Assembly: GCA_963662945.1 (NCBI GenBank) | Contig: OY759974.1 | Span: 1,984,001-2,048,000 of the forward strand | DNA: 64,000 nucleotides | Reading direction: 5' to 3' | Origin: Arcobacteraceae bacterium | GTDB lineage: Bacteria; Campylobacterota; Campylobacteria; Campylobacterales; Arcobacteraceae | In this document: positions 12,474 to 49,284 of the stretch, one piece after another | Layout: the number at the start of each line of letters is the position of its first letter | Position numbering within the stretch: the first letter of the stretch is position 1 | Made by a program: the position numbers and the translations under genes | Notes under the pieces: generated by a model | The model's input: only the letters and a program-made list of their open reading frames with translations | Databases searched by the model: none | Told to the model about the DNA's origin: nothing

Positions 12474-12479
12474 GAGAAT

Positions 12480-15037: not shown

Positions 15038-15045
15038 TAACAAAA

Positions 15046-15097
15046 ATAACTGTTTTATAACTTTTATAACTGTTTTGTAACCATTGTATGTTAGAAT
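15046..15097 (+). promoter_or_regulatory. Pho-box-like promoter of DUF4912-branching enzyme operon (duplicated box pair)
   Basis: ATAACT-gtttt-ATAACT-ttt-ATAACT-gtttt-GTAACC-N9-TAGAAT. Confidence 0.65.
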
Positions 15098-15121
15098 AGA
15101 TTTATAAATGCGGGGAGTAAT

Positions 15122-15742
15122 ATGAATAGTCAACTAATAAAAGATAGTTTAGAAGAAAATAATTTTTCAAGTAGTACTCACACTATTGAAGTGATATCAT
15201 TTGATAGTAAACAAGTAGCACGAAAAGAATATCCAATACCACATAGATACTATAAAGATCAACTCGTATTACTACCAATAAACAGTAAAAAATTCTATAT
15301 GTACTGGGAATTTACAGATACATTATTACAAAAATATCATCTAGAAAATGTTACTCAGATAAAATTTAAAGTAGTTGACAGCGAAGCACATACTATAAAA
15401 GATATTGATTGCTTGGGAGAGTTGGGTGAATATTTTGTCAATGACTTAAAATATACATCAAAAATAAAAGTAGTTGCAGGATATTATAAAGATGGTGTAT
15501 TTATAGAAATAATGCATTCAAATCAGATTGGTTCATTTAATACTGAGATAAATTATAAAGGTGCTGACAAGCTTGTATATCTAAAAAAAGAGCGAGGATT
15601 TACTGAAATTATTCGTTCATCATTACAACACTTTACATTAGGAATGTCATCAGCTTCTTATATCAAAGAGATAGAAAGATTGCAAGAGTTTTCAAAATTA
15701 TCAAAAGATTTATTGTCTTCACATACATTAGGGGAAAAATAA
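15122..15742 (+). CDS. DUF4912-like protein
   Basis: IPHRYYKDQLVLLP...FYMYWE and SN motif; adjacent to GH57 branching enzyme. Confidence 0.7.
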   Translation: MNSQLIKDSLEENNFSSSTHTIEVISFDSKQVARKEYPIPHRYYKDQLVLLPINSKKFYMYWEFTDTLLQKYHLENVTQIKFKVVDSEAHTIKDIDCLGELGEYFVNDLKYTSKIKVVAGYYKDGVFIEIMHSNQIGSFNTEINYKGADKLVYLKKERGFTEIIRSSLQHFTLGMSSASYIKEIERLQEFSKLSKDLLSSHTLGEK

Positions 15743-15743
15743 T

Positions 15744-17324
15744 ATGTTAAAAGGTTATTGGATACCAGTACTTCATTCTCATCTACCGTTTGTTAAACAT
15801 CCTCAATATGAGTACTTTTTAGAAGAACATTGGCTTTTTGAAGCAATCAGCGAATGTTATATTCCGTTATTGAAAAATTTAAAAAGATTATATGATGAGG
15901 GAGTTGATTTTCGATTAACAATTTCTGTTACTCCTCCATTGGCAGAGATGTTAGATGATAGACATCTTATGGAAAAATATGAAAGATATCTTGATAGACA
16001 AATTGAACTTGGGGTTAAAGAGTGTCAAAGAACACAAGATGATGAGGTTTATAGAGGCATTGCTCATTTTTACAATGATAAATTTGTAGAGATAAAAGAG
16101 TTCTTTACAAACTTTTTACAAAGAAATGTTTTGAACGGTTATAGATTTTTTAATGATTTAGGAAAAATTGAAGTTATTACTTGTGGAGCAACTCATGGTT
16201 TTTTACCACTTTTAAGTGTTAATGAAAAAGTAGTTGAAGTGCAAATAGAAGTTGCAGTTGCAGCACACACAAAACATTTTAAAAAACCACCAAAAGGGAT
16301 TTGGCTTCCTGAATGTGCCTATTATGATGGACTTGATAAGATTTTAAAAGCAAATGGGATAGAGTTTTTCTTTGTTGATTCTCATGCTTTAATTTATGGA
16401 GAACCAACAGCTTTAAATGGTGTATATGCTCCTATTTATACGGAGCAAGCAGTTGCAGCATTTGCACGAGACCCACACTCTGCAAAACAAGTATGGAGTT
16501 CAAAAGAAGGGTATCCTGGAGATTTTAATTATCGTGATTTTTATAGAGATATTGGGTACGATTTAGACTATGAATATATAAAAGATTATATTGATCCAGA
16601 TGGTACGAGAGTTTTTACAGGGTATAAATATCATAAGGTTACAGGAGACTCAGATTATAAAGAGGTATATAATCCTTATATTGCAAGTGAAACTACAAAA
16701 TCTCATGCAGCGGATTTCCACTATAAAAGAGAACAGCAGTTTGAACATTTAGGGCAATTTATGGATAGGACTCCAATGGTTGTTTCCCCTTATGATGCGG
16801 AATTATTCGGTCACTGGTGGTTTGAAGGACCTGAGTTTTTATATAATTTATTTAAAGAGATTGAGACACATCATGTTTTTAAAGCTGTAACACCTTTAGA
16901 ATATCTTACAATGTATCCCCAAAATCAAGTTATCAATCCCAGTGCATCTTCTTGGGGAGATGAGGGGTATTATGATGTGTGGTTAAATGAAGGAAATTCT
17001 TGGATATATAGACACCTTCATAATATGGCAGATGATATTATAAATCTTGCAAATATTTACCATAATGGTGCAGACTTTAATACTACGAGAATATTAAATC
17101 AAATGACAAAAGAATTACTCTTAGCACAAAGTAGTGATTGGGCATTTTTAGTGACAACAAAAACAGCAGTTGAGTATAGTATTTTAAGAACACAAGAACA
17201 TATTTCTAACTTTACAAGTTTAAAAAATATGATTAATGGAAATATAGATTTTGAACTTCTTGAAGAGTTAGAGTATAAAAATTCTATTTTTAATTTTGTA
17301 GATTATAAAATCTTTGCATCATAA
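15744..17324 (+). CDS. GH57 1,4-alpha-glucan branching enzyme (DUF1957)
   Basis: LHSHLPFV, EEHWLFEA, WLPECAY (nucleophile), YDAELFGHWWFEG (acid/base), LAQSSDW. Confidence 0.93.
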   Translation: MLKGYWIPVLHSHLPFVKHPQYEYFLEEHWLFEAISECYIPLLKNLKRLYDEGVDFRLTISVTPPLAEMLDDRHLMEKYERYLDRQIELGVKECQRTQDDEVYRGIAHFYNDKFVEIKEFFTNFLQRNVLNGYRFFNDLGKIEVITCGATHGFLPLLSVNEKVVEVQIEVAVAAHTKHFKKPPKGIWLPECAYYDGLDKILKANGIEFFFVDSHALIYGEPTALNGVYAPIYTEQAVAAFARDPHSAKQVWSSKEGYPGDFNYRDFYRDIGYDLDYEYIKDYIDPDGTRVFTGYKYHKVTGDSDYKEVYNPYIASETTKSHAADFHYKREQQFEHLGQFMDRTPMVVSPYDAELFGHWWFEGPEFLYNLFKEIETHHVFKAVTPLEYLTMYPQNQVINPSASSWGDEGYYDVWLNEGNSWIYRHLHNMADDIINLANIYHNGADFNTTRILNQMTKELLLAQSSDWAFLVTTKTAVEYSILRTQEHISNFTSLKNMINGNIDFELLEELEYKNSIFNFVDYKIFAS

Positions 17325-17349
17325 GATAAAAGATTTACTTTTATCTTAT
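17321..17349. terminator. bidirectional hairpin at convergent GH57 stops
   Basis: ATAAGATAAAAG-attta-CTTTTATCTTAT perfect 12-bp stem. Confidence 0.7.
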
Positions 17350-19347
17350 CTCTAGTTGTAAACTATTTTGTTCTTTATTTGTAAAAGGATAGATAAATCC
17401 AAAAGTAAGACCTTGATTTGTTAAATCAACACCTTGCTCACTTTGACTTACACTATCAAGTGTACAAATAACTATCTCTATCTCTTTTGAAGTAGTGAAA
17501 ATCAACGTTTTCTCTAAATAACTATCATAAATTTCTAAAGAATTTGTTTTTATATTGTAAGGCTCTGTTTTAAGTTGTTCAGCGATGAATTTACCATTGA
17601 AAGTAAGATTTTCTAAACTTGCAAAGTGCAGATTCCATTCTTGAATGTATTGTAAAGGTTCGTTGTATTGTGCATTTACAACAATATCTAAAGTAATTGT
17701 GTTGCCTATAAACTTGTACTCTTTTTTTATTTTAGTATCATATTTTGTGTCTAAATATATTCCACCACTCCTTTGGAGTTGTAAACTGTTTTCAGTTGAT
17801 TTTATTAACTCAAAAGGTTGGTTAGTAAAGTCTGAAATTTCATGAAAATTATTATGACAAAAATCTAAAGTAGATGTTTCTTTTGACACTATATGGTCAA
17901 TAGCAGATTTTTTAAAATACCAATCTGTAGTTAAGAATATATCTTCGCTTACTTTTAATTTATTGTCATGAATAGTAGCAATCTCATCACTTACAAGTTC
18001 AACTTCAACTATCTCTTCGTGGTTTACTTCAATTTTACTATGATAAGCTTCTTCATATCTTGTAAGTGTATTTTGAAGATTGAAGTTTTTATCTAAAACA
18101 TCTAGTTCAAAAATTTGCCCACCATTTTTTAAAGAGATGATTGTAAGAAGTGTTTGTGTATTGTATTTATATTCTTTGTAACCATTACAATCTATGTCTA
18201 TTATTTCGTGTTTAGAAGGAGAAATGTTTTCACATTCTATGATATGTTTATAAGCATTATCCCTTAAATTTGGAAGATAAACTCCCCCAAAAACACCATG
18301 CCACAATACATCATTACATTGTGCCTTATAAAGTGCATCTATGTATTCTGGCTGTAGTGTTTGCTTTTTAGATAACTCTGTATATCTCTTATGAATCCAG
18401 TTACTCTCTTGATATTTTGTTAAAAAGTTTTTCCAAGTTCCACCTCTAATAAATTGTGTTGCCTGAGGGTTGTTTTCTAAAAGATGTTCTAAAGTAAGTG
18501 TATCTTGACTAGTTAAAGACCATTCTCCCATTTCGTAGTAAGAAACAGTTGGTAGGTAACTTAATCCTATTGGTGGATTGTTGAGATAAAATTCTTCAAA
18601 AGTATCAACACTTATATTTTTATTTTCCAATGTTTGTTTGAAAAAATCTCGCAACCACTCTTTTTCATAAACACTTTCATAAGTTTTTGGCCAGATACCA
18701 AACTTTTCACCATCATCGAAGATTATGGCTGCATTTTTTCCTGAAATATTAGAGAATGATTCTAAAATATTTTCTGTTTTTTCCAAACTATAAAATGGAA
18801 TTGCATATCTTAAAGCTTTATTGATAGGAAAGAGGGCGATTATTTCTCCCCCATCTTCTGTTAAGAAATATCCATTAAGATTTTCAGTTTTGATACCACT
18901 TGTAAGAAGATGATAATCATCAACAACAACATATTCTATACCACACTCTTTTAAATCTTTGATTATAGAATTATCCCAAACTCTCTCAGTTAACCATAAT
19001 CCTTTTGGTTGTTGGTTAAAATGTTTTTTAATATAACTATTGAGTTTTTGTATTTGTCCAATTCTATCTTTTGAAGAGATGGCACTAAGGACTGGTTCAT
19101 AATATCCACCAGTAAAAAACTCTAACTGATTTGATAAAGACTTCATTAAAGTGAAAAGTTCTTCATCATGTGTCTCAATATACTCTAAAAGCCAACCACT
19201 ATAGTGAACAGAACATTTAAATTTGGGGAACTCTTTTAAAACTTTAAAAAATGGTTTATAGGATTTTTCAATCGCTTCATCTAAAACCCAATCAAAATTA
19301 TCAACAGGTTGATGACAGTGGATTCCAAAAAGTAATGATGTAGTCAT
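17341..19347 (-). CDS. GH57 4-alpha-glucanotransferase/alpha-amylase
   Basis: HCHQPVDNF, GGYYEP, WLTERVW, DDGEKFGIWP, QCNDVLWHGVFGG; start moved to ATG 19347 (GGGGG RBS). Confidence 0.9.
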   Translation of the reverse strand: MTTSLLFGIHCHQPVDNFDWVLDEAIEKSYKPFFKVLKEFPKFKCSVHYSGWLLEYIETHDEELFTLMKSLSNQLEFFTGGYYEPVLSAISSKDRIGQIQKLNSYIKKHFNQQPKGLWLTERVWDNSIIKDLKECGIEYVVVDDYHLLTSGIKTENLNGYFLTEDGGEIIALFPINKALRYAIPFYSLEKTENILESFSNISGKNAAIIFDDGEKFGIWPKTYESVYEKEWLRDFFKQTLENKNISVDTFEEFYLNNPPIGLSYLPTVSYYEMGEWSLTSQDTLTLEHLLENNPQATQFIRGGTWKNFLTKYQESNWIHKRYTELSKKQTLQPEYIDALYKAQCNDVLWHGVFGGVYLPNLRDNAYKHIIECENISPSKHEIIDIDCNGYKEYKYNTQTLLTIISLKNGGQIFELDVLDKNFNLQNTLTRYEEAYHSKIEVNHEEIVEVELVSDEIATIHDNKLKVSEDIFLTTDWYFKKSAIDHIVSKETSTLDFCHNNFHEISDFTNQPFELIKSTENSLQLQRSGGIYLDTKYDTKIKKEYKFIGNTITLDIVVNAQYNEPLQYIQEWNLHFASLENLTFNGKFIAEQLKTEPYNIKTNSLEIYDSYLEKTLIFTTSKEIEIVICTLDSVSQSEQGVDLTNQGLTFGFIYPFTNKEQNSLQLEIR

Positions 19348-19372
19348 AATTCCCCCTTTTTTGAGACATTGT

Positions 19373-19404
19373 ATAATAATCAAGTTTAGTAACATATCAA
19401 TTAC
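19373..19404 (-). promoter_or_regulatory. Pho-box-like promoter of GH57 glucanotransferase
   Basis: GTAATT-gatat-GTTACT-N9-TATTAT. Confidence 0.62.
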
Positions 19405-30325: not shown

Positions 30326-31144
30326 TTAATAGTTTTGTAGTAGTTTTGTCCCTTGTAGAGAACCTTCATTGAGTGTAGATAAAGTTATAGAAAGTTTTTC
30401 TCTCTTAAAAGCACTTTGTAAAAATTGTTTTTCTAAAAAGCTTTTAATTTTGGGATGGTTTCCAACGCTACCACCTAATACTAAATGGTCAAAGTCAAAT
30501 AGATTTAAAGCAGTATGAAAAGCGTGTGATAATCCATTATAAAAATTTTCAATGATTATATTTGCATTGTCAGTATTGAGTGATTCTAGTAAATCTAATC
30601 TACTAAATTCTTTATCTATTTTAAAATAAGAGCACCAATGTTTAAGACCATTTCCACTTACATACAGTTCTAAACAATCGTCTCTTCCACATCCACAAGT
30701 AAATGGAGATTTTTTAAAAGGGATATGTCCTATCTCTCCAGCAGTGTTATTTGCACCTGTTACTAATCTGTTATTATCTATAAAAGCACTTCCAAACCCA
30801 GTTCCTATATAAAAAACTGCTAAAGATTTTACTTGCAAAGCATGATGTTCTGCAATTGCTGCACAATTTAAATCATTGTCAATAGCTACTGAAATTTTGT
30901 ATTTTTCCTCAATGTATTTTTTTACATCAAAGTTTGCTGTATGCGCATTTGGAGAGGAAATTATTTTTCCATTTCGTACCTGCCCAGCAAAAGATATACC
31001 TATAAAAGATATATTTGGATATTTTTTTATTATCTCATCAAGGAATTTTTTTAAATCTATTGTATCACTTGATAGTGTTGTTACGGAAGATTCATCAAAT
31101 TGATATCGAAAACTTGTTCCACCAAAATCAATATACAGATTCAT
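30326..31144 (-). CDS. ROK family sugar kinase (probable glucokinase)
   Basis: IDFGGT, DNDLN, GTGFG, GEIGH, CGCG..DCLE; start moved to ATG 31144. Confidence 0.87.
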   Translation of the reverse strand: MNLYIDFGGTSFRYQFDESSVTTLSSDTIDLKKFLDEIIKKYPNISFIGISFAGQVRNGKIISSPNAHTANFDVKKYIEEKYKISVAIDNDLNCAAIAEHHALQVKSLAVFYIGTGFGSAFIDNNRLVTGANNTAGEIGHIPFKKSPFTCGCGRDDCLELYVSGNGLKHWCSYFKIDKEFSRLDLLESLNTDNANIIIENFYNGLSHAFHTALNLFDFDHLVLGGSVGNHPKIKSFLEKQFLQSAFKREKLSITLSTLNEGSLQGTKLLQNY

Positions 31145-31145
31145 T

Positions 31146-32573
31146 TTATGACTTATATAACTCAATATATTCTTTAGTTGATTGTTTCCAAGAGTGGTCA
31201 ACTTTCATATTGTGTTTTGAAATTTGTTCAAATTTTTTATGATTTCCATATAATGATAACGCTTTTGCAATTGCATGCATAAACCAAAAAATATTGTGTT
31301 CTTCATATGTGATACCAATACCCATATACTCTTTTAAGTGATTATAATCAACATCAGTAAAATCTGTAACAGTATCTCTAAGTCCTCCTGTTTTAGCAAC
31401 AATTGGTAAAGTCCCATATTTCATACAAATCATCTGATTTAATCCACAAGGTTCAAATAAAGATGGCATCACTAAAAAGTCTGCCCCTGCATACATTTTT
31501 CTTGCAAAACTTTCGTTGTATCCAACTTTGATATAAACATTTGGATAACTTACAGAGATATTATTAAAAACTGTATTATAGTGTTCTTCCCCACTTCCAA
31601 GAACGATAAAGTTTGCTTCAAAATCTTTAAAAAAGTTAAAGTTTTCAATTAAAAGGTCAATTCCTTTTTGATGAGTGAATCGTCCTATAAAAACAAAAAG
31701 TGGTTTATCACATTCTACAAAGCCAACTTCTTTTAAGAGGTTTTGTTTGTTGATATCCTTGTCTTCATAAGTTTTTACCCCAAAGTTTTTATAAAGCATA
31801 TCATCTTTTTTTGGATCAAAAACATCATAACTTATACCATTTAAAATACCTTTGAGTTTATAACTGTTTGCTCGTAAAACATCATCTAAATCACTACCAA
31901 AAAGTGGTGTTTGAATTTCATTTGCATATGTTGGACTTACCGTTGTTATATGATCACTATAATAAATTCCTGCTTTTAAGAAATTTACTTGGTCATGATA
32001 TTCCAAAGATTCAGGTCTAAAACATTCATTCCAATCTATATCAAGAATTTTCATTGTATCTTTATGAAATACTCCTTGGTAAGCCAAGTTATGGATTGTT
32101 AATACAACTTTTTGGTTTAAATGATATTTCGTTTTAGCAAGAAGTGCTATAAGTGAAGTTTGCCAATCGTTTAAATGTATTACGTCAATTTCTAAATTCA
32201 TTTGTAGCATTACTTCAAGACAAGCATAACTAAAAAGCCCAAATCTTAAGGCATTATCCCCAAAGTCACCAAAGTCATCAAAATATAATCCTGTTCTATC
32301 ACATAAAATGGGATTATAAATAAACAGTTCATATTTATTCTTTTTATTAACAAAAATATCAAATTGATGAGTAATACCATCTAAGATATAATCAAATGTC
32401 AAGTCGGCATATTCTATATGAAATTTTTCTCTATCTATTGTTTGGTATAAAGGAAGAAGTGTATAAACTTTTTCTTTTTTTCTTAAAGCTTCAGGTAAAC
32501 TCTGTGCTACATCAGCAAGTCCACCTGTTTTAGCATACGGATACATTTCACTTGTACAAAATAATATTTTCAT
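31146..32573 (-). CDS. glgA: glycogen synthase (GT5)
   Basis: KTGGLADV, HLNDWQT, TIHNLAYQG, GRFTHQKG, PSLFEPCGLNQ. Confidence 0.96.
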   Translation of the reverse strand: MKILFCTSEMYPYAKTGGLADVAQSLPEALRKKEKVYTLLPLYQTIDREKFHIEYADLTFDYILDGITHQFDIFVNKKNKYELFIYNPILCDRTGLYFDDFGDFGDNALRFGLFSYACLEVMLQMNLEIDVIHLNDWQTSLIALLAKTKYHLNQKVVLTIHNLAYQGVFHKDTMKILDIDWNECFRPESLEYHDQVNFLKAGIYYSDHITTVSPTYANEIQTPLFGSDLDDVLRANSYKLKGILNGISYDVFDPKKDDMLYKNFGVKTYEDKDINKQNLLKEVGFVECDKPLFVFIGRFTHQKGIDLLIENFNFFKDFEANFIVLGSGEEHYNTVFNNISVSYPNVYIKVGYNESFARKMYAGADFLVMPSLFEPCGLNQMICMKYGTLPIVAKTGGLRDTVTDFTDVDYNHLKEYMGIGITYEEHNIFWFMHAIAKALSLYGNHKKFEQISKHNMKVDHSWKQSTKEYIELYKS

Positions 32574-32587
32574 TTTTTTCCTTTTTA

Positions 32588-33562
32588 TTAACTCTCTTTT
32601 AAAATTTCTGCTGCTGTTTCAGGTAAAAAAGTATTTACCATTATATCTGTATCTAATTCAAATCCAGCAATCTTATATAAGCGTGGTAAAATTTCAATAT
32701 GGAAACGGTTGGAGTTTTTTTTAGATTGAATATCTCCATTTTTAATAAGCATATTGAAATCAGGTCCACCCAAAGCATTATTTAGTTTTAGGAAGCAAAA
32801 ATTAATAACTTCACTTAAAGAATAAATATCTACATCATTAAAGTCCAACAAAGATGTAAGATTTTTTTTAGCAACAATATTTATTTCAAAAGGATACCTT
32901 GAAGCATAAGGGCAAAATGCTATAAAAGAACTATTTTCAAACAATAATCCTTTTTTAAAATTTTTTTCATCAGCAATAAAATCATCAAAAAAATCCCTCT
33001 CAGTATCAATTTTATATTTCTCATAAAATTGCAATGCTTTTTGTGTAGTTTTTGGGATGAAAGGTGTTGCAATAAGTTGTGAGTGTGAATGTTCCATTGT
33101 TGCACCGGCATTTTCGCCATGATTTTTAAATATTGAAAAATATTTGATTCGGACATCTTTTTTTAAATCTTTTAATCGTAACTGTATAATTGAAAAATAG
33201 TCGAAAAACTCATCAACAGTAAAATCAAACATTTGTTTTGTATGGTTAGGTGTTTCTATGATAACTTCATGAGCCCCAAAGCCACTTTTATTTTCAAAAC
33301 AGCCATTTTTGTAAGAGTTTGGTTCTACCTCTATAGAGAGTGCATGGTAAAGATTAGCCACAATTCTACATCTCCAATGCGTATCATCTCCAATTCTCAG
33401 TAGCTCATTTGGTGTTTTTTCCTCATTGCCTAATTCAAATGGACAACTTGTAATATCAGAAAGAGTTGTATTAAAAGAGTTGAAATTTGTTGGTCGTTTT
33501 GCACGATTGGGGGCAAAAAGTATCCAATGTTGTGTGAGTTTGTTATATCGAAATTCTGACAT
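32588..33562 (-). CDS. GalT-like nucleotidyltransferase (HIT-fold)
   Basis: RAKRP, CPF..GNE..TP, GAHEVIIETP.H, AGATMEHSHSQ (HxHxQ), AGFELDT. Confidence 0.88.
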   Translation of the reverse strand: MSEFRYNKLTQHWILFAPNRAKRPTNFNSFNTTLSDITSCPFELGNEEKTPNELLRIGDDTHWRCRIVANLYHALSIEVEPNSYKNGCFENKSGFGAHEVIIETPNHTKQMFDFTVDEFFDYFSIIQLRLKDLKKDVRIKYFSIFKNHGENAGATMEHSHSQLIATPFIPKTTQKALQFYEKYKIDTERDFFDDFIADEKNFKKGLLFENSSFIAFCPYASRYPFEINIVAKKNLTSLLDFNDVDIYSLSEVINFCFLKLNNALGGPDFNMLIKNGDIQSKKNSNRFHIEILPRLYKIAGFELDTDIMVNTFLPETAAEILKES

Positions 33563-33573
33563 GCCTTACCTTA

Positions 33574-35658
33574 TTATATATACCAATTGTTTAAATCTAA
33601 ATCTTCTATCTCTATGGTGAAATTACCATATAAAGGGAATGATTGAAGAGTGAGATTGTTTTCTATTATAAAAAATTTAAAATCTATTCTTTGACCTATT
33701 ATAATATCTTTTTGTAAAATTTCTAATTCAATATTATCATGAACATTACAAGAAAATAGTGTAAAATCATTTTGTACTATATTTTGTTTATCTTTTTGTA
33801 TCTCTATATTAAATTCTACATTGTTGATAAGTATTTTTAAAATAGAGTTTTCTTTTAATTTATTAAAGTTTCCATCAAAAAAGATAAAAAGTCTTTTTTT
33901 AGAGTATCCATACCGAATATGTTTGACTATACTTTTTGTAGAATCCATCACTGAGAATTCTTTTTTTATGTCAATAATACCAGAATTTAACCACTCAAAA
34001 TAATCACTTTTAACTCCATCAATTTTTGGATATATAAAGTTTATAGGTTTTGTATGAAAACTATTTTTTAGCTGTGTTTGTACGATAGGAGTTAATATTT
34101 TGTGTGGTATATCAGCTTGCATATATTGAAAAATATTGATTAGGTGTTTTCTAAAAAGTTCGTCAAACTCTTTTGCTTGGAGTGTAAAATGATCATCTCC
34201 ATACCACCAAAACCAATCACTTCCAAGTGCAATCATAAACTCTTTTTCAATTAATTCAAGAGTTTGACTATCTAAATGCTCTTTTCTTTTATCAAATTCT
34301 TTTTTTGTTAAATCTAGAAGTTCCCAAGCTTGATTTTTTTCACAACTTCCTATCCAAATATCAAAGTTTCCATTTATCCAACTTCCAGTTGCTAATTGAG
34401 AAATACTAATGGTTTGAATTTCACTATCATTTGTTATTTCATCCATTGTGACTGTTTGTAACCAAGGTGTATTTTCAAAAAGAGTATAGAGTTCTTTAAA
34501 AAACTCCCAACCATTATTTGGAAAAAACTCCCATGCATTTTCCCCGTCTAATATAACATTAACAAGTGGTGAAAAATCACAATTATCATAAATATTTTTT
34601 AAATGTTTTACAAACTCAGCAGCTGCAGCTTTTGCATCTTTTTGACTATAATCAAAACCTATTGCATCACTTAAATGGTGATCTCTAAATCGTACTTGAA
34701 TAGTACCATTTTCTGTATATAAGTTATAGTTTTTATAGATATTAAGTTTTGTATTATTTTTGAGTGTTTTAAATAAGATTTCTTCATCTGTACAGAACCA
34801 CTGTAAATGATTTTGTGCAAAGAGTTCTGCTGTTTTAAAACTAACACTTCCTTCAGCTGGCCAAAATCCTGAAGGTTTTTTTCCAAATAGTTTTTCAAAA
34901 TATGCAATAGCATATTGTGTATTCTTTTCTCCAAATGTATGAAAATCTGTAGTAATATTTGGTAATGTCACACTTGGTTTTGCCTCTAAGGCACTCTGTG
35001 TATCAAGAAGTAGTGGTGTTATAGGATGATAATATGGAGTGGTACAAAGTGTAATTTTCTTTTCTTGATCAAGTTTTTTATAAAAGTCCAAAATAGTAGG
35101 TAAAAATAGAATAAGTTCCTCTATAAGGTTTTGTTTATCTTCTTGTGTAAAATATTGTCCTTTTTGTAAAAGTGTACTAACAATTTTATTGTTTTGGCGT
35201 AAATAATTACCACACCAAGAAAGGAGAAATAATACCTCTAAATCTAATAATTCATTGCTTGAAAAATCTAATATTGTATTATGTGTGTTGAATCTTAAAT
35301 AAAGTTCATAATATCTTTTTAAAGGTTTAATCATATTTTTTTCATTTGCTAAAAAAAGATAACTTTGAAGAAATTCTATATCATTTTTTGATAGATTATC
35401 AATATTTATTTTGAGTGTTTCAATGAGTTTATCATTTGCAGTATTATGAATATAAGATTCAATTTGAGATATTAAAGAGGGTACAAGGTTGTAAGTGGCT
35501 TTGATACTACTAAATTTTGAACCATACCATGGAATATCATAATAATCTTTAATAGCGTGCAAAAACACCCAAGGCATAAGAGTTTCATTCTCTTTATCAT
35601 CCTTGTAGTATGGTTGATGCATATGCCATAAAAAGGCAAGTTTTAGTGTTTTATTCAC
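33574..35658 (-). CDS. GH57 amylopullulanase-like glycoside hydrolase
   Basis: WHMHQPYY, PYYHPI.PL, WPAEGSVS, LDGENAWE, GSDWFWWYG. Confidence 0.9.
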   Translation of the reverse strand: MNKTLKLAFLWHMHQPYYKDDKENETLMPWVFLHAIKDYYDIPWYGSKFSSIKATYNLVPSLISQIESYIHNTANDKLIETLKINIDNLSKNDIEFLQSYLFLANEKNMIKPLKRYYELYLRFNTHNTILDFSSNELLDLEVLFLLSWCGNYLRQNNKIVSTLLQKGQYFTQEDKQNLIEELILFLPTILDFYKKLDQEKKITLCTTPYYHPITPLLLDTQSALEAKPSVTLPNITTDFHTFGEKNTQYAIAYFEKLFGKKPSGFWPAEGSVSFKTAELFAQNHLQWFCTDEEILFKTLKNNTKLNIYKNYNLYTENGTIQVRFRDHHLSDAIGFDYSQKDAKAAAAEFVKHLKNIYDNCDFSPLVNVILDGENAWEFFPNNGWEFFKELYTLFENTPWLQTVTMDEITNDSEIQTISISQLATGSWINGNFDIWIGSCEKNQAWELLDLTKKEFDKRKEHLDSQTLELIEKEFMIALGSDWFWWYGDDHFTLQAKEFDELFRKHLINIFQYMQADIPHKILTPIVQTQLKNSFHTKPINFIYPKIDGVKSDYFEWLNSGIIDIKKEFSVMDSTKSIVKHIRYGYSKKRLFIFFDGNFNKLKENSILKILINNVEFNIEIQKDKQNIVQNDFTLFSCNVHDNIELEILQKDIIIGQRIDFKFFIIENNLTLQSFPLYGNFTIEIEDLDLNNWYI

Positions 35659-38143
35659 TGATCCAGTTCTCTATCTTTTCTTGATATTTCCAAAATATTT
35701 TACTAGCATTTTTTTCATCATCTGCTTGAATATAAATATTTAAAAAGTCATTATGTTCATCTGGAACCATTAAAATCCACTCATCATCACTAATCCATAT
35801 TTTTACACCATCCACAGAACTTGTTTTTTTATTTTTCCCATCTTCTAGGAATTTTCTCATCATTTTGCCTTTAAATTCACTAGGACAAGCTACGTTTTCA
35901 CCTTTATATGTAAAATATGGAATATGAGCGATAATATTTGAAAGAGTTTTTCCAGATTTTAGAAGAAGTTCTAATATTTTGAAACTTGAAAATACTGCAT
36001 CACGATTAAGACCAAATTCACTAAATGCAAAATGCCCATCTGTAGTTGCAATAAGAGTATATTCTTTTAAATCAGCGGCTTTGAGATTATTGAGTTTTCC
36101 TCTTGTAATATCTAAATTTTTATATTCAATACAATCAGGTGCCCAAGCAGGTAAAAATACTTTTACTTTTGTATCTGTTGTAATATCTAAAAGGTGTAAA
36201 ACAACTAAGAGTGCGATATAGTCATAAACTAATTCACCCTCATCATCAATAATTTGAAACTTTTGTCCATTTGGATAGATTAGAAAACCACAATCTAAAT
36301 TCATGGCTTTTACCATATTTCCCATATCTTTTTGTGATTTTACTACATTTGCAGCAATTTTTGATAAACTTTTATCATCATGGTATCCATTGAGTAATAT
36401 GTTTTCTACTCCAAGATGATTCATGATTTTTGGATAGATATCTGCAGTTGAACCAAACATCATATCTGTTGCAATTTTAAGATTATTATTTTTAAAAATA
36501 TTATGATTGAGTTTTTGAATTACTGCATCCATATATCTATTTTTAATATTCTTTTTATTTGAGATTTCACCAATTTCGGTATAAGTTACACGTCTGAAAT
36601 TTTCTCTAAAAAATATTCTTTCAATTGATTTTGCAAGTTTTGAATCAATTGCTAATCCTTCACTTGTATATAATACAATTTCTGTATTTGCAGGGTCTTC
36701 AACTGATTGTCTAAAGTGTATACCAGCAGCTATATGTTCATCATTTGCCAAACTATGTCTCATAACGTTGGATGGAACACTTTCAATATCAATAACATTT
36801 ATACCAGTAGAAAGGATTCCTGATAGAAATGCTCGTTTTAACATTCGTGAGCTTTTATGATAATCTCTTGAAATATATACTTTACTTCCTACAGGTAAAA
36901 TAGACCCAAAAGATTCTGCAAGTTTCACACTTACATCACATGAAAGTTCTATATTAGTTCTTCCAATTACTTTTCCATCTTCAAAAATAGATGATTTATA
37001 TTTATTTCCCCAAATGACATTGTTACTTACTACAGAGTTAGCATCAATAATTTTATCAGGCCACATCATAATATCTTTTTCGAAACTAGCTTTTTTCCCT
37101 ATTTCACAATGTTCAGCTATTATAACACCAAAATTTGCTTTTACTTCATCTTTAATAATATTGTCATTACAAATAACGCTATTGTGAATAAGTGCTTTTT
37201 GACCTACAGAGATATTGTCCCAAAGTACACTATTTGATACTTCAGAGTGTTTTCTGATTTTTACATTAGAACCTATAGATACATTGCTAAGAGTTACACC
37301 TTCAGCTACTTTTGTATCTTTTCCAATGATAACTGTACCATTGATTCTTATTTTTTCAGGAAGAGATACTCCTTCTTCTAAATAAGCAATTCCTTTTTCA
37401 AAAGTTACTTTTTCCCCTTTATATGGAAGAGTGATTAAGCCTTTGAAAATATCATCATATACTTCTCTATAACTTTGTGGATTTCCAACATCTCTCCAAT
37501 AGCCTTCAGAACTATAACCCCATAACGGAATATCATTTGACATTAAAGTAGGAAATAAATCTTTAGCAAAGTCAAAATTTTCACCATGTGGTATATATTT
37601 TAAAATTTCAGGTTCAATCATATAAATACCTGTATTAATAGTATCACTAAATACTTCACCCCAACTAGGTTTCTCTAAGAATTTTTCAATTCTATTCTCT
37701 TGAGAAGCAATAACAACACCAAATTGAAGTGGATTCTCTACACTAGTTAGTGTAATAGTTAATTGAGATTTTTTCTTTTCATGAAATTTTTTAATCTTTT
37801 TAAAATCAAAATCAGTAACTAAATCACCACTTACAATAATAAAAGTTTCATCAAGAAAATCTCTTGCAAAAGCAACAGCACCAGCAGTTCCATAATCATC
37901 ATCAGGTTGAACATAAGTGATTTTTACTCCAAAATTACTTCCATCACCAAAATGCTCTTTAATAATTTCCGGTTTAAAATAAAGGAGTACAGCCATCTCT
38001 TTAATATCAAGTTCATCACGAAGTTTGATAATAATATGTTCCATCATTGGTCGATTTAATATTGGCAACATTGGCTTTGGTAAAGAGTTTGTTAAGGGTT
38101 GAATTCTTGTACCAAATCCACCTGCTAAGATTATCGCTTTCAT
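35651..38143 (-). CDS. sugar-1-phosphate nucleotidyltransferase + LbH + degenerate phosphohexomutase fusion
   Basis: ILAGGFGTR..PLT...PKPM, GTAGAV, EKP, YWRDVG, hexapeptide repeats, then mutase-like SRDY..SSRMLKRA and DGVK. Confidence 0.87.
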   Translation of the reverse strand: MKAIILAGGFGTRIQPLTNSLPKPMLPILNRPMMEHIIIKLRDELDIKEMAVLLYFKPEIIKEHFGDGSNFGVKITYVQPDDDYGTAGAVAFARDFLDETFIIVSGDLVTDFDFKKIKKFHEKKKSQLTITLTSVENPLQFGVVIASQENRIEKFLEKPSWGEVFSDTINTGIYMIEPEILKYIPHGENFDFAKDLFPTLMSNDIPLWGYSSEGYWRDVGNPQSYREVYDDIFKGLITLPYKGEKVTFEKGIAYLEEGVSLPEKIRINGTVIIGKDTKVAEGVTLSNVSIGSNVKIRKHSEVSNSVLWDNISVGQKALIHNSVICNDNIIKDEVKANFGVIIAEHCEIGKKASFEKDIMMWPDKIIDANSVVSNNVIWGNKYKSSIFEDGKVIGRTNIELSCDVSVKLAESFGSILPVGSKVYISRDYHKSSRMLKRAFLSGILSTGINVIDIESVPSNVMRHSLANDEHIAAGIHFRQSVEDPANTEIVLYTSEGLAIDSKLAKSIERIFFRENFRRVTYTEIGEISNKKNIKNRYMDAVIQKLNHNIFKNNNLKIATDMMFGSTADIYPKIMNHLGVENILLNGYHDDKSLSKIAANVVKSQKDMGNMVKAMNLDCGFLIYPNGQKFQIIDDEGELVYDYIALLVVLHLLDITTDTKVKVFLPAWAPDCIEYKNLDITRGKLNNLKAADLKEYTLIATTDGHFAFSEFGLNRDAVFSSFKILELLLKSGKTLSNIIAHIPYFTYKGENVACPSEFKGKMMRKFLEDGKNKKTSSVDGVKIWISDDEWILMVPDEHNDFLNIYIQADDEKNASKIFWKYQEKIENWISE

Positions 38144-38202: not shown

Positions 38203-40011
38203 TTAATCCACTTTCCATGCTTTACAGATACTAAATAACTGTCTATTCTTTTGAAAAAGTGTATGCATTTGTCTAAGAATATTTTTAATTATAATGACTG
38301 TATCTGTTACATAAGGGCCTTTATTGAGCATAACACAATCTGCTCTTTGAGCAATAGCTGCATCTGTAACTTCTGCACGACTTGGAAGATTGTTTTTCAT
38401 TTTTCCCTCAAGAATTTGTGTAGCGTATATAACTGGTGTATGAGAAGCTTCACAAATATTTAAAATCTCCTCTTGTATATAAGGAAGATTATCAAAACCA
38501 ACTTCAATAGCTAAATCACCTCTTGCAATCATAAGTGCATGATTTGGCCATTCTAGAAGTGTTTCAAGGATTAAAGGAAGATTTTTCAATGCAGTTTTTG
38601 TCTCAATTTTTGGAGCTATTGCTATGTGTTCTTTATTTTTAAGTTTTAACATATTTTGTAGCTTTTTTATATCTTCTGGTGTTTGTGCAAAAGATAAACC
38701 AATAATATCTGCAAACTCAACAATATCTTCAAATATTTTTTCATCTTCAGGAGTTATTGCATCAATTTTTAAATCAGTGCTTGGAAAGTTAATTCCTTTT
38801 TCTTCTTTTAAAGATGTTCCATTTTCTTTTGCTAAGAAAATATCACATACCAAACCAATTTCATTGATATGAGATACTTTACAACCAATCTTTCCATCAT
38901 CTATAAAAATATCATCACCGATATTTACGTAAGGAAAAATCTCTTTATTGGAACATCCTATAACTGCATTATAAGTGATGTTTTCATAGGAGTAATCACT
39001 ACAACCAATAATATCTTGATGTGTAATAATGATTTGATTTCCTTTATAAAGTTTTATATCTTCTGGCAGTTTTTCAATATTATAAAGGCAACTGATATAT
39101 TTATGATTTTCATCTTTTATCTCAATAGTTGTATTTTCAAAGATAGTGATTTTTTTATTTGCATTTAGAAAAATTCTATCATTTTCTTTGATTAATTCAT
39201 AACATTGTCTAGCATCTCTTTCAAAATCATCAATTTTAACTTTTGTACTTGTTTTACATATTTGAAAAAAATCATGACTTACTACAAGTGTAGCTTGAAC
39301 TGAATTTGTATTACTTTTTTCAAGTTTTTTTGTAGCTACATCTGGTGTAGAAATAGGAATTAACTCTACAAGTTTTGGGTTTCTCCATGAACCAATTTTA
39401 AAAGGTGTAAAAACTTTTTGGATAGTTTGTGTTCTATTTTTGGGACCAGCTAAATCAACATATATTTTTGTTTCTTTATTTTGTTTTCCATTTTCTTCTT
39501 TAATAAAAGAAGCCATTCTATTCCAAGCAGCCGCATTATCGTGTGCTGTATTGATTCTAAAAACAGAAGTTCCATTTGCAATGAGTTCCCCTATTAGTTT
39601 TGGCGATTCCTGAGCTTCACTTGGAAGGGTTACCATAACTTTTGTTTTAAAACTTAAATCAGATTTTCCAAATACTTCACTATTTTTTAACATAATGTTT
39701 TTAGCATCATCATAATTTAATGCATCTAAATCATTTTGTGTTTGTTTATAGGGCTTATGTAATAGTTTTGATAATATAAGGATATCTTGATTAATAGAGT
39801 TTATAACACAACTTTGAGCTCTTCCTAAAGAAGATAATCCTAGATTTGTAAGATGATTTTGTAATTCTCGTAAATCAAGTGAACGTAATTTTATGTACGC
39901 TTGAAGGTTTTGTATACTTTGATTTGGATTATTTTGATCCACATTAGATAAAATCTCTTCTTTAAGTTCTAATAGTTGTGAGTAGGTTGTTTCTATTATT
40001 TTAGATTCCAT
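38203..40011 (-). CDS. pyk: pyruvate kinase, long variant
   Basis: RINTAHD, DLAGPK, IDDGKI, KIET, ARGDL, ATQILE, PSRAEVTD. Confidence 0.88.
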   Translation of the reverse strand: MESKIIETTYSQLLELKEEILSNVDQNNPNQSIQNLQAYIKLRSLDLRELQNHLTNLGLSSLGRAQSCVINSINQDILILSKLLHKPYKQTQNDLDALNYDDAKNIMLKNSEVFGKSDLSFKTKVMVTLPSEAQESPKLIGELIANGTSVFRINTAHDNAAAWNRMASFIKEENGKQNKETKIYVDLAGPKNRTQTIQKVFTPFKIGSWRNPKLVELIPISTPDVATKKLEKSNTNSVQATLVVSHDFFQICKTSTKVKIDDFERDARQCYELIKENDRIFLNANKKITIFENTTIEIKDENHKYISCLYNIEKLPEDIKLYKGNQIIITHQDIIGCSDYSYENITYNAVIGCSNKEIFPYVNIGDDIFIDDGKIGCKVSHINEIGLVCDIFLAKENGTSLKEEKGINFPSTDLKIDAITPEDEKIFEDIVEFADIIGLSFAQTPEDIKKLQNMLKLKNKEHIAIAPKIETKTALKNLPLILETLLEWPNHALMIARGDLAIEVGFDNLPYIQEEILNICEASHTPVIYATQILEGKMKNNLPSRAEVTDAAIAQRADCVMLNKGPYVTDTVIIIKNILRQMHTLFQKNRQLFSICKAWKVD

Positions 40012-44579: not shown

Positions 44580-46001
44580 ATGAGAAAAACAAAGATTGTA
44601 GTAACACTAGGGCCAGCAACTGATAGTTTAAAAATGATAGAAAAACTTATTAAAAAAGGGGTAAATGTATTTAGATTAAACTTTTCACATGCTACTCATG
44701 AATACCATCAAGAGGTTGCAAAAAGGATACGAAAAGCATCGCAAAATGTAAATAAAGAAGTAGCAATCCTTCAAGATATTGCAGGTCCAAAGATACGAAT
44801 ATCTCATTTAAAAAAGCCAATAGAGTTAAAAATAGGGGATATACTTACTTTGACTAAAGATAAAATAGATGAAGATAAAAAAATAGTAAGTTTGAGTTAT
44901 CCAATTATTATAGATAGTCTTAAAGTTGGGGAGCCAGTTTATTTTTCAGATGGAACAATTCGAGCTAAAGTAGTAGAAAAAAATGCAGATGAGGTAAAGT
45001 GTGAAATAATAGTAGCCCAAACACTTCAATCAAAAAAAGGGATGAATCTTCCTAAGTCAAAACTGGCTATTAAGTCAATTACACAAAAAGATAAAGAGGA
45101 TTTAGCTTTTGGTGCAAAGATTGGGGTTGATATAGTTGCATTGTCTTTTGTAAGTAACAAAGAGGATATACAAGATGCAAAAGATATTTTAGAACAACAC
45201 AATTCAAATCCACTTATTTTTGCAAAAATAGAGAAAAAAGAGGCTATTGAAAATATCAAATCTATTTTAAAAGCAGCAGATGGAATTATGGTGGCACGAG
45301 GTGATTTAGGGGTAGAGTTAGGACTAAAAAAAGTTCCACTAATCCAAAAGAAAATTATAGCCCAAGCTTTAAAAATGGGAAAACCAACTATAACAGCAAC
45401 ACAAATGTTAACTTCAATGATAAATTCACACTATCCTACACGTGCAGAGATATCTGATGTGGCAAATGCAGTTTTAGATGGAAGTGATGCTGTTATGTTA
45501 AGTGATGAAACAACTATAGGAAAGTATCCTTTAAGTGCCGTAGAAGTTTTAAATGAAACTATAATTGAAACAGAAAAAGCATATCCATATTATCAAGATA
45601 CAGACCATGTTTCATCAGATGATTCAATTGCAGCAGCAGTTACAACACTAGCAAAAAATATCAAACCTGATGCACTTATAGCTTTTACGCGAGCTGGAAG
45701 AAGTGCTATGTCTATGGCAAAATTTAGACCAAGAGCAAAAATTCTTGTAAGTAGTTATGACTTAAGAACTTTACGAAAATTGCAACTTGTATGGGGAATA
45801 GAGGGTATTTATCTTTCTCATAAATTAAATGATGCTGATGAATTAATCAAAAGCTTTTTAACTTGGGCATTAAAGAAAAAACATATTAGTAAAAATAAAA
45901 AATATGTATTAACGATTGGTTCACCAATAAATGTGAAACACTCTACAAATGATATACGAATATTGGAAAACGAGAGTATGGAGTATATTTTAGGGAAATA
46001 A
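44580..46001 (+). CDS. pyk: pyruvate kinase
   Basis: RKTKIV.TLGP, RLNFSH, AKIE, MVARGDLG, ATQML.SM, PTRAE..DVANA. Confidence 0.96.
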   Translation: MRKTKIVVTLGPATDSLKMIEKLIKKGVNVFRLNFSHATHEYHQEVAKRIRKASQNVNKEVAILQDIAGPKIRISHLKKPIELKIGDILTLTKDKIDEDKKIVSLSYPIIIDSLKVGEPVYFSDGTIRAKVVEKNADEVKCEIIVAQTLQSKKGMNLPKSKLAIKSITQKDKEDLAFGAKIGVDIVALSFVSNKEDIQDAKDILEQHNSNPLIFAKIEKKEAIENIKSILKAADGIMVARGDLGVELGLKKVPLIQKKIIAQALKMGKPTITATQMLTSMINSHYPTRAEISDVANAVLDGSDAVMLSDETTIGKYPLSAVEVLNETIIETEKAYPYYQDTDHVSSDDSIAAAVTTLAKNIKPDALIAFTRAGRSAMSMAKFRPRAKILVSSYDLRTLRKLQLVWGIEGIYLSHKLNDADELIKSFLTWALKKKHISKNKKYVLTIGSPINVKHSTNDIRILENESMEYILGK

Positions 46002-47679: not shown

Positions 47680-49284
47680 CTAAAAGAGGCTTGTAACAAT
47701 TTTTTGTGCATCACTTTGGATAGTTTTTAAGTGTTCCTCATTTATAAAACTCTCCGCATATATTTTATAAACATCTTCAGTCCCAGAAGGTCTTAATGCA
47801 CACCAGCCATTTTGAGTATTGATTTTAAGTCCTCCAATTTTTGCACCATTTGAAGCAGTTGTTAAAATAGAAGTTATCTTTTCTCCTGCAAGTGTATCTG
47901 CTTTTATATCTTCACTTACAAGATTTTTAAGTCTATTTTTTTGCTCACTATTTGCAGGTGCATCAATTCTAGCATAGATAGGTTTTCCATGTTTTTTTAT
48001 AAGATTTTCGTAGTAAATCCCTGGGTCACTTTTTGTTTTTGCTAGTATCTCAGCAGAGAGTAGATTTAAGATAATTCCATCTTTATCTGTAGTCCAAGGT
48101 TTTTTATCAAATCGTAAAAAACTAGCCCCAGCACTCTCTTCACCACCAAAGAAAACCTGACCATCAATAAGAGGTTTAACAAACCATTTAAACCCAACTG
48201 GCGTTTCAAAAAGTTCTTTGTTATTATCAAGGGCAACTCTATCTATCATAGAACTACTTACAAGAGTTTTTCCAATCCCCAAACCGTCAAAGTCTCTGTT
48301 TCTTGAAAGATAATCTATAGCAACACTTAAGTAGTGGTTTGGATTTAATAAACCTACACTTTTTGTCACTATACCATGTCTATCAAAATCTGTATCATTT
48401 CCAAAAGCTATATCAAACTTATCTTTATATTCTATAAGTCCTGCCATAGCATAAGGGCTTGAACAATCCATACGGATTTTCCCATCTTTATCACAGTGCA
48501 TAAATGAAAATGTAAAATCAACAGAGTCATTAAATGTAGTAATATTTAAATTATATGCTTTGGCAATTGCTTCATAATATTTTAAACCACTTCCACCCAT
48601 ACAATCAGCACCAATCTTGATATTTGATTGAGCAATAAGTTCCATATTTATAACATTTTTCAAATCTTTTACATAAGGTGTCATAAAATCATACTCTTGG
48701 ATACATTTCTGTTTAATAGCTTCATCAAAATCAAGATACACTACACCTTGTAAATCATTTAAGAGATATTCATTTGCTTTGTTTTCTATCCAAGTTGTGA
48801 TATCTACATCTGCTGGACCTCCGTCAAGTCCATTGTATTTAAAACCACCATCACAAGGTGGATTATGTGATGGAGTGATAACAATTCCATCACTACCTTT
48901 TTTATTTAAAATAGCATGAGAAATAACAGGAGTAGGGGTATACTCGAAATTTGCAGCATAACATACCTCTACATCATTTGCAGCTAATACTTGAAGTGCT
49001 GTTTTGTGTGCTGGAGTTGATAGTGCATGAGTATCCATCCCTATAAATAAAGTCCCTGTAATATTGTGTGCTTTTCTATAATCAACAACTGCTTGTGTTA
49101 CAGCTAAGATATGTGCTTCATTAAAACTATTTTTTAAGCTACTTCCTCTATGCCCTGAAGTTCCAAATGCTATTTTTTGTGTTTCATCTTCACAATTTGG
49201 AAAGTTTGTATAGTAACAACTTATCAATTCTGCAATATTTTCTAAAATCTCTTTTGGCGCAATTTTCCCAGCATTACTATTCAT
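47680..49284 (-). CDS. pgm: phosphoglucomutase (alpha-D-glucose-phosphate specific)
   Basis: FGTSGHRG, ITPSHNPP, NDTDFDRHG, PVGFKWF, GEESAG, RPSGTE. Confidence 0.95.
   Translation of the reverse strand: MNSNAGKIAPKEILENIAELISCYYTNFPNCEDETQKIAFGTSGHRGSSLKNSFNEAHILAVTQAVVDYRKAHNITGTLFIGMDTHALSTPAHKTALQVLAANDVEVCYAANFEYTPTPVISHAILNKKGSDGIVITPSHNPPCDGGFKYNGLDGGPADVDITTWIENKANEYLLNDLQGVVYLDFDEAIKQKCIQEYDFMTPYVKDLKNVINMELIAQSNIKIGADCMGGSGLKYYEAIAKAYNLNITTFNDSVDFTFSFMHCDKDGKIRMDCSSPYAMAGLIEYKDKFDIAFGNDTDFDRHGIVTKSVGLLNPNHYLSVAIDYLSRNRDFDGLGIGKTLVSSSMIDRVALDNNKELFETPVGFKWFVKPLIDGQVFFGGEESAGASFLRFDKKPWTTDKDGIILNLLSAEILAKTKSDPGIYYENLIKKHGKPIYARIDAPANSEQKNRLKNLVSEDIKADTLAGEKITSILTTASNGAKIGGLKINTQNGWCALRPSGTEDVYKIYAESFINEEHLKTIQSDAQKIVTSLF

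Follow-up and report, generated by a model that had tools for sequence, protein, structure and literature searches.

A nucleotidyltransferase fused to an inactive mutase domain is a predicted substitute for GlgC in the glycogen gene cluster of an Arcobacteraceae bacterium

How is a bacterial glycogen synthase supplied with activated glucose if the genome lacks glgC, the gene for ADP-glucose pyrophosphorylase? This question is raised by a stretch of 64,000 nucleotides from an Arcobacteraceae bacterium (GenBank assembly GCA_963662945.1, contig OY759974.1, positions 1,984,001 to 2,048,000 of the forward strand), referred to below as the window and numbered from its first nucleotide. Its glycogen synthase gene glgA belongs to a tight run of glycogen genes, the first of which (35651..38143, minus strand) is an open reading frame without internal stops for an 830-aa protein in which a nucleotidyltransferase (NTase), a left-handed beta-helix (LbH) and a predicted inactive mutase are fused. 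This fusion most likely works at the GlgC step, yet it does not appear to belong to the GlgC family, and we regard it neither as a GDP-mannose enzyme nor as a mutase. We predict that it is a non-orthologous ADP-glucose pyrophosphorylase replacing GlgC, with a probability of roughly one half, and we are more confident that it supplies GlgA with a nucleoside diphosphate (NDP)-glucose of one kind or another.

The host genome, a single contig of 99.99% completeness, contains no glgC above the TIGR02091 cut-off; the best-scoring protein is the fusion itself, whose 115.6 bits lie below the cut-off of 424.9. Eight proteins of this genome match PF00483, namely the fusion, GalU, RfbF, MurU and GlmU (the latter four above their own cut-offs), two unnamed NTases encoded within a cluster of surface-sugar genes, and a single weak match. 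Mannose-6-phosphate isomerases of type I, type II and the PGI/PMI type as well as gmd gave no match in the host genome, the same searches being positive in control genomes. We rejected a GlgE route, since PF00128 (GH13) matches only one protein of this genome, which has 589 aa, is encoded next to galU and is not of the GlgE type. In G000 (C1:2292773-2299897), galU and pgi stand behind genes for a HAD phosphatase, a kinase, a glycosyltransferase and a GH13 protein, which presumably form a glucosylglycerate pathway (of these proteins, GH13 and GalU alone were scanned).

The distribution of the fusion follows that of glgA. Of 251 genomes of the phylum Campylobacterota, 27 have the fusion and exactly these 27 have glgA; in the family, the two genes likewise coincide in 43 of 151 genomes, with a patchy pattern inside genera (e.g. 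13/21, 15/24, 4/11 and 3/35). Since the two sets have G000 and G177 in common, these are 68 distinct genomes with fusion and glgA. The initial annotation had proposed a profile against glgA-positive, glgC-negative genomes, and this profile came out as expected for a GlgC substitute: all 68 genomes qualify, as none has a glgC above the cut-off, and there is no glgA-positive genome without the fusion among them.

The relatives with 76-90% identity to the fusion are from Arcobacteraceae, and the 79 loci of relatives contain a GH57 gene in 65, a GalT-like gene in 52 and glgA in 46 cases, with many loci ending at contig edges. In a metagenome scan using a distant alignment, 80 fusion loci were obtained, of which 26 have GH57, 17 GalT-like and 14 glgA; a separate glgC was found in none of them. 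When only the 39 metagenome loci of at least 12 kb are considered, a glycogen gene is present in 19. Four loci with about 40% identity, in which GH57 plus GalT-like or glgA lie downstream, group with proteins assigned to Trichlorobacter, Geobacter, Geomonas and Desulfuromonadales. The order NTase-GH57-GalT-like-glgA thus recurs in Geobacteraceae and is conserved in two phyla.

On the protein level, Pfam assigns NTP_transferase to residues 2-232, LbH to 252-352, PGM_PMM_I to 387-517 and PGM_PMM_II to 536-636 of the fusion. An AlphaFold2 model based on a 141-row alignment is confident over the whole length (predicted local distance difference test score 94.9, predicted template modelling score 0.78). 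Foldseek matches its N-terminal half to tlr0611 and VTC1, and its C-terminal half to the archaeal phosphoglucomutase/phosphomannomutase (PGM/PMM) structures 9du5 and 1wqa (TMt 0.85-0.87). The NTase domain (residues 1-232; 37448..38143, minus) retains the catalytic residues R13, K23, D107, E157-K158 and D218, and is followed by the beta-helix (about residues 252-378; 37010..37390, minus), in agreement with the earlier statement that both domains are intact. This architecture is also that of E. coli GlgC, as had been pointed out. The catalytic and glucose-site residues of the NTase are invariant, or almost so.

The sugar pocket of the NTase is of the glucose type. Its motif D191-F-A-K-D (37559..37573, minus) corresponds to D239-F240 of GlgC, and the Asp is retained in 135 of 138 family rows. 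In E. coli GlgC (b3430), we take E194, K195, S212, Y216, D239, F240, W274 and D276 to be the glucose-1-phosphate site; seven of these eight residues are identical in the fusion, S212 being replaced by Asn. The GDP-mannose enzymes VTC1, Leishmania GDP-mannose pyrophosphorylase and human GMPPB have SIEKE in place of DFAKD, and CugP has DIGSQ. For the NTase domain by itself, the top match in the PDB is tlr0611 (8x7s; E 7.8e-44), which is named a UTP-glucose-1-phosphate uridylyltransferase and has an Asp at the sugar pocket as well. In VTC1, Glu195-Lys196 and Asn109 were placed at the GDP-mannose site (PMC9168903), and the equivalents in the fusion are Ala193-Lys194 and Ser105. Because D191-F192 is GlgC-like and the mannose-type Glu is lost, glucose-1-phosphate is likely to be the sugar substrate of the whole family.

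The C-terminal part (residues 385-830; 35654..36991, minus) has the complete four-domain phosphohexomutase fold, in common with archaeal-type PGM/PMM (9du5, 1wqa, 2f7l; TMt 0.84-0.87, 20-24% identity). The four active-site loops present in those enzymes are all replaced. Two of the replacements had been noticed before and were located here: GIHFRQSVEDP (residues 474-484; 36692..36724, minus) stands for the phospho-Ser loop TxSHNP, and IYPNGQK (residues 622-628; 36260..36280, minus) for the metal loop DxDxDR. The loss is larger than initially described, because the sugar-binding loop GEES is replaced by TTDGHF (36029..36046, minus) and the phosphate-binding loop RxSGTEP of domain IV by VPDEHNDFLNIY (35732..35767, minus). 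As pairwise reference, we used the intact mutase from locus L128; its loops GDADRF (metal), GGEESAG (sugar) and RVSGTEP (phosphate) aligned with PNGQKF, ATTDGHF and VPDEHND of the fusion, respectively. Judged from these alignments, the mutase domain is catalytically dead. In addition, the combination of SHN and DxDxDR downstream of residue 370 was not found in any of the 255 homologues of at least 780 aa (among 271 proteins); a DxDxDR-like match alone was found in four and an SHN/SHT-like match alone in three of them.

The dead domain is under purifying selection and not decaying. The ratio of non-synonymous to synonymous substitution rates (dN/dS) of residues 385-830 was 0.06-0.18 in the five of eight pairs with measurable dS, the other three being saturated, and is comparable to the 0.05-0.10 of the NTase domain. 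Numerous Arg/Lys residues outside the old mutase loops (R462, K505, R513, R518, K758, R763 and K781) are kept in 80-95% of 141 sequences, and might serve as a phosphate site of a new kind or as an interface. The initial annotation had suggested that the dead mutase senses a sugar-phosphate. This is possible, but we found it unsupported for the canonical cleft: since the loops by which active mutases bind sugar and phosphate are gone, any ligand site in this domain must be new. The domain would be a structural or regulatory module.

Which nucleotide is joined to the glucose is suggested by the nucleobase loop Y77-G85 (37889..37915, minus), in which Pro80 and Asp83 take the places of an acid and a Pro, respectively, in GDP enzymes. 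In VTC1, residue 80 hydrogen-bonds N1 of guanine; it is written as Asp80 in the paper and is Glu in the PDB sequence (PMC9168903). Among the 79 Campylobacterota loci, the N-terminus can be read in 77, and all 77 have Pro at position 80. A residue other than Glu stands there in 30 of 31 metagenome loci with a glycogen link and in 47 of the 49 remaining loci from metagenomes or plasmids, vs Glu in 107 of 134 readable representatives of the wider family (of 137). The other NTases of the host genome have Gln (GalU), Glu (the two unnamed NTases) or Thr (the CTP enzyme RfbF) at this position, the alignment of MurU, GlmU and GlgC being ambiguous there. In CugP, the base-reading residue is Glu when counted by eye from the strand, as the loop carries an insertion. 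A pocket without a hydrogen-bond acceptor at position 80 is inferred to suit a base without an imino N-H, i.e. adenine or cytosine, and Asp83 might read the amino group of adenine. We favour adenine, because the fusion has Pro instead of the Glu or Gln by which the imino N-H of G, U or T is recognised, and because the operon encodes an enzyme resembling ADP-glucose phosphorylase.

This latter enzyme is the GalT-like HIT transferase (32588..33562, minus) with an intact HxHxQ motif, which is closest to Arabidopsis ADP-glucose phosphorylase At5g18200. It matched 1z84/2h39 with an E-value of 5.8e-53 and E. coli GalT with 1.8e-14; 1Z84 is the structure of At5g18200 (bioRxiv 10.64898/2026.09.13.751320). 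Both histidines of the motif are kept, the second one in 67 of 68 sequences. A Leloir role for this gene was rejected, as galK is absent from the host genome and was found in control genomes. Within the phylum, the GalT-like gene occurs in 27 of 251 genomes, 26 of which also have the fusion. The draft genome G163 has fusion and glgA and no GalT-like match; conversely, G071 (C1:1724808-1725788, L207) has the GalT-like gene alone: 19 kb of sequence contain no further glycogen gene, and the genome has neither fusion nor glgA. The GalT-like neighbour appears to tie ADP-glucose to the operon, yet it is at the same time a rival source of this compound. The donor-pocket residues of GlgA and the GalT-like protein are consistent with intact catalytic sites and do not distinguish ADP from UDP. 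At L035 (11680-14295), GH57 and the GalT-like protein are joined in a single 872-aa protein, an arrangement also found at L037, L038 and L039 and in G177 (873-aa frame).

The proposal of the initial annotation, according to which the fusion provides NDP-glucose for GlgA in the place of GlgC, is thus supported by the genome profile, the gene order in two phyla, the glucose-type pocket and the lack of a mannose route, yet GalU, which is above the cut-off in 26 of 26 relatives tested, could also feed GlgA. Two other explanations deserve consideration. It is conceivable, though in our view unlikely, that the fusion is a dedicated pyrophosphorylase beside the housekeeping GalU that feeds GlgA with UDP-, GDP- or CDP-glucose or acts promiscuously. 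All evidence from genomic context fits this explanation equally well, among solved NTases tlr0611, a UTP enzyme of the CugP type, is the closest, and GT5 synthases taking UDP-glucose have been listed together with an archaeal enzyme making GDP-glucose (PMC11046441; Epsilonproteobacteria are not mentioned in the available part of that text). However, the Glu/Gln at position 80 is lost, where CugP has its strand-counted Glu, UDP-glucose is already made by GalU, and the GalT-like neighbour indicates ADP-glucose.

We likewise give little weight to the explanation that GlgA is fed by GalU with UDP-glucose, or by the GalT-like enzyme with ADP-glucose made from ADP and glucose-1-phosphate, and that the fusion is a regulator, a scaffold or a maker of a side product. 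The ubiquity of galU, the conserved HxHxQ histidines and the tracking of the operon by the GalT-like gene speak for it, as do a lone fusion copy on a Sulfuricurvum plasmid without glycogen neighbours and the precedent of Pseudomonas aeruginosa, where GlgA runs on UDP-glucose and glgC is absent (bioRxiv 10.1101/2020.10.23.351924). Against it stand the nearly invariant catalytic and glucose-site residues of the fusion, which none of the 68 glgA-positive genomes lacks, and the genomes G163 (draft) and G071, in which the GalT-like gene is missing or on its own. Besides, GalU serves envelope synthesis. That the database label of GDP-mannose pyrophosphorylase, with or without phosphomannomutase activity, is correct is very improbable: it is backed by the source names, by the best NCBIfam match NF052502 (233.2 bits, below the cut-off of 440) and by strong matches to VTC1 and GMPPB, but all four mutase loops are lost, the 255 full-length homologues include none with both SHN and DxDxDR, the VTC1 guanine and mannose residues 80, 109 and 195 are replaced, and the host genome has neither mannose-6-phosphate isomerase nor Gmd.

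Several observations weigh against an ADP-glucose pyrophosphorylase in the role of GlgC. The base argument is built on one position, at which cytosine would fit as well as adenine and the GlgC alignment is ambiguous. In a tree of 56 rows drawn at random from 143, calculated with the Pro/Asp columns masked, the Pro/Asp proteins formed one branch (Shimodaira-Hasegawa-like approximate likelihood ratio test 100), with two changes vs 18.6 after shuffling; the Pro/Asp loop therefore seems to mark a single clade and one evolutionary event rather than many. All glycogen-linked loci placed in a larger tree fall in this clade, these loci having been picked as best matches to a clade member. Likewise, the match in 68 genomes does not amount to 68 independent tests, because the sampled genomes are related and gains and losses of linked genes are coupled, and the co-occurrence of fusion and glgA is partly due to operon linkage and kinship. 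The count of glgC absence covers genomes of Campylobacterota; outside this phylum, the whole-genome comparison consists of one Bacillus record, which has a wider-family member of the fusion alongside a true glgC. A glycogen neighbour is missing for many Pro/Asp clade members, namely in 20 of the 39 metagenome loci of at least 12 kb. In overall sequence, the NTase matches CugP (UTP) and the GDP-mannose enzymes far better, with E-values of 1e-37 to 1e-44, than it matches GlgC with about 1e-9, and it lacks the regulatory loop of GlgC. The presence of galU in all relatives tested and the glgC-free Pseudomonas GlgA count here as well. Finally, no characterisation or assay of the fusion was found in the literature searched, most subscription journals being outside its reach.

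If the fusion is an ADP-glucose pyrophosphorylase nonetheless, glycogen synthesis could proceed as follows. Pgm would make glucose-1-phosphate, which the NTase would join to ATP, yielding ADP-glucose for the neighbouring GlgA; synthesis and breakdown of the polymer would be carried out by GlgA, the GH57 branching enzyme and GlgP, with surplus ADP-glucose being recycled by the GalT-like enzyme. In the weakest step of this scheme, the dead mutase would set the oligomer state or relay a signal via a site other than the old cleft.

Compared to known systems, the fusion shares with E. coli GlgC (TIGR02091) the catalytic residues R32, K42 and D142, the motif YWRDVG and, by gene context, the place in the pathway. 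It differs from GlgC by an extra 450 aa of dead mutase and by falling in the GMPP/CugP branch by sequence. K39, Q74 and the W113-Y114 loop, which we take to be allosteric elements of GlgC, are replaced by Ser, replaced by Tyr and absent as an insertion, respectively. CugP (tlr0611, 8x7s; sll1558) is about 400 aa long without mutase and has, like the fusion, a glucose-type pocket in a GMPP-like NTase plus LbH; it is annotated as mannose-1-phosphate guanylyltransferase, yet its sugar is glucose (PMC7401256). The GDP-mannose pyrophosphorylases VTC1, GMPPB and the Leishmania enzyme (7x8j, 7d72, 7whr) have the fold and high sequence scores in common with the fusion, but carry ExEPLG, NSD and SIEKE where the fusion has PDDDYG, SGD and DFAKD. 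The full-length architecture is that of a family of proteins of about 830 aa, to which SCO1388 and sll1496 are assigned, and whose source names, as stated in the initial annotation, carry the label mannose-1-phosphate guanylyltransferase/phosphomannomutase. Members from Streptomyces, Nonomuraea and Bacillus are 28-30% identical to the fusion; this wider family has mostly Glu80 and Pro83, with one member beside glgC, whereas the fusion is in the separate Pro/Asp clade. Mutants in SCO1388 suggest little contribution to GDP-mannose pyrophosphorylase activity (PMC5982138), and in the accessible parts of two further papers the family appears as annotation only (PMC6585502, PMC3514855). A glycogen cluster specific to vent Epsilonproteobacteria was reported by Zhang and Sievert in 2014 (PMC3958643), whose Table S4 includes glgA, glgP, glgB, an amylase, GH57, pgm, ROK and galT; neither glgC nor an entry annotated as this fusion appears in the table, and the main-text passage on glycogen is silent on the donor.

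A more far-reaching scenario, which we put forward tentatively, is that of a second, independently evolved ADP-glucose pyrophosphorylase, derived from the GDP-mannose/CugP branch via one rewritten nucleobase loop. In this protein, a dead phosphoglucomutase would provide allosteric control instead of the GlgC loops. The enzyme would be the gatekeeper of glycogen synthesis in free-living members of Campylobacterota and Geobacteraceae, and a plant-type ADP-glucose phosphorylase would act as the overflow valve. If an ADP-glucose pyrophosphorylase function is true, the missing first step of glycogen synthesis would be filled for the chemolithoautotrophs that dominate vents and sulfidic habitats, and probably for Geobacteraceae as well, and the widespread annotation as a mannose enzyme with two activities would be corrected. 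The fusion would also be a clean example of a pseudoenzyme held under strong selection, and surveys of glycogen pathways based on glgC would overlook these organisms.

With regard to the gene neighbourhood, the stop codon region of the fusion overlaps by 8 bp with the gene for a 694-aa GH57 glycoside hydrolase (33574..35658, minus), which is followed at gaps of 11, 14 and 1 bp by the GalT-like gene, glgA (GT5 glycogen synthase; 31146..32573, minus; above the TIGR02095 cut-off) and a ROK-family sugar kinase assigned by Pfam (30326..31144, minus; likely start ATG at 31144). The fusion had been described as the first gene of a tight run. The run is tight and the fusion is its first glycogen gene; however, the same-strand run does not begin with it: upstream are a second pyruvate kinase gene (38203-40011), pfkA and gap, at distances of 59, 13 and 83 bp. 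No terminator-like site was detected by a scan of the 59-bp spacer upstream of the fusion, and a promoter scan gave 83 sites vs 76.8 expected. This second pyruvate kinase has 602 aa and its best match, PRK14725, is below the cut-off; an ordinary pyk is located at 44580-46001. The intact phosphoglucomutase gene that had been noted at 47680..49284 (minus) has TPSHNP and DTDFDR, is above the TIGR01132 cut-off and is the likely source of glucose-1-phosphate; its product and one protein encoded elsewhere are the two proteins of the host genome with both SHN and DxDxDR. A second glycogen cluster (10833-19395) consists of a short glgP (546 aa), pgk, mgtE, genes for a DUF4912 protein and a GH57 branching enzyme, and a convergent gene for a GH57 4-alpha-glucanotransferase. 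Since the window includes these glgP, branching enzyme and glucanotransferase genes, its polymer kit is complete apart from GlgC.

In other genomes, the surroundings of the fusion vary. Among the non-glycogen loci (58 neighbours scanned of 89), an intact PGM/PMM is encoded directly 3' of the fusion in L115, L128, L136 and L141, and a phosphotransferase system (PTS) EIIA protein in L148, L166, L167 and L172. A gene for a receiver-domain protein lies directly upstream of the fusion in L094, L095, L097, L098 and L102, and one for a GAF histidine kinase follows it in L111 (8361-10004); a signalling input to the fusion by such neighbours is possible. The lone copy of Sulfuricurvum kujiense is located on plasmid pSULKU01 (L174, 12035-14572) amid phospholipase genes, where 29.5 kb of sequence contain no glycogen gene. 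In G350 (C1:475784-494965; L208, L209), the fusion is about 12 kb away from GH57-GalT-like-glgA, all four genes being intact. Two glgA paralogues, often on either side of the ROK kinase gene, are present in 12 of the 27 glgA-positive genomes of the phylum, e.g. G075, G091 and G165.

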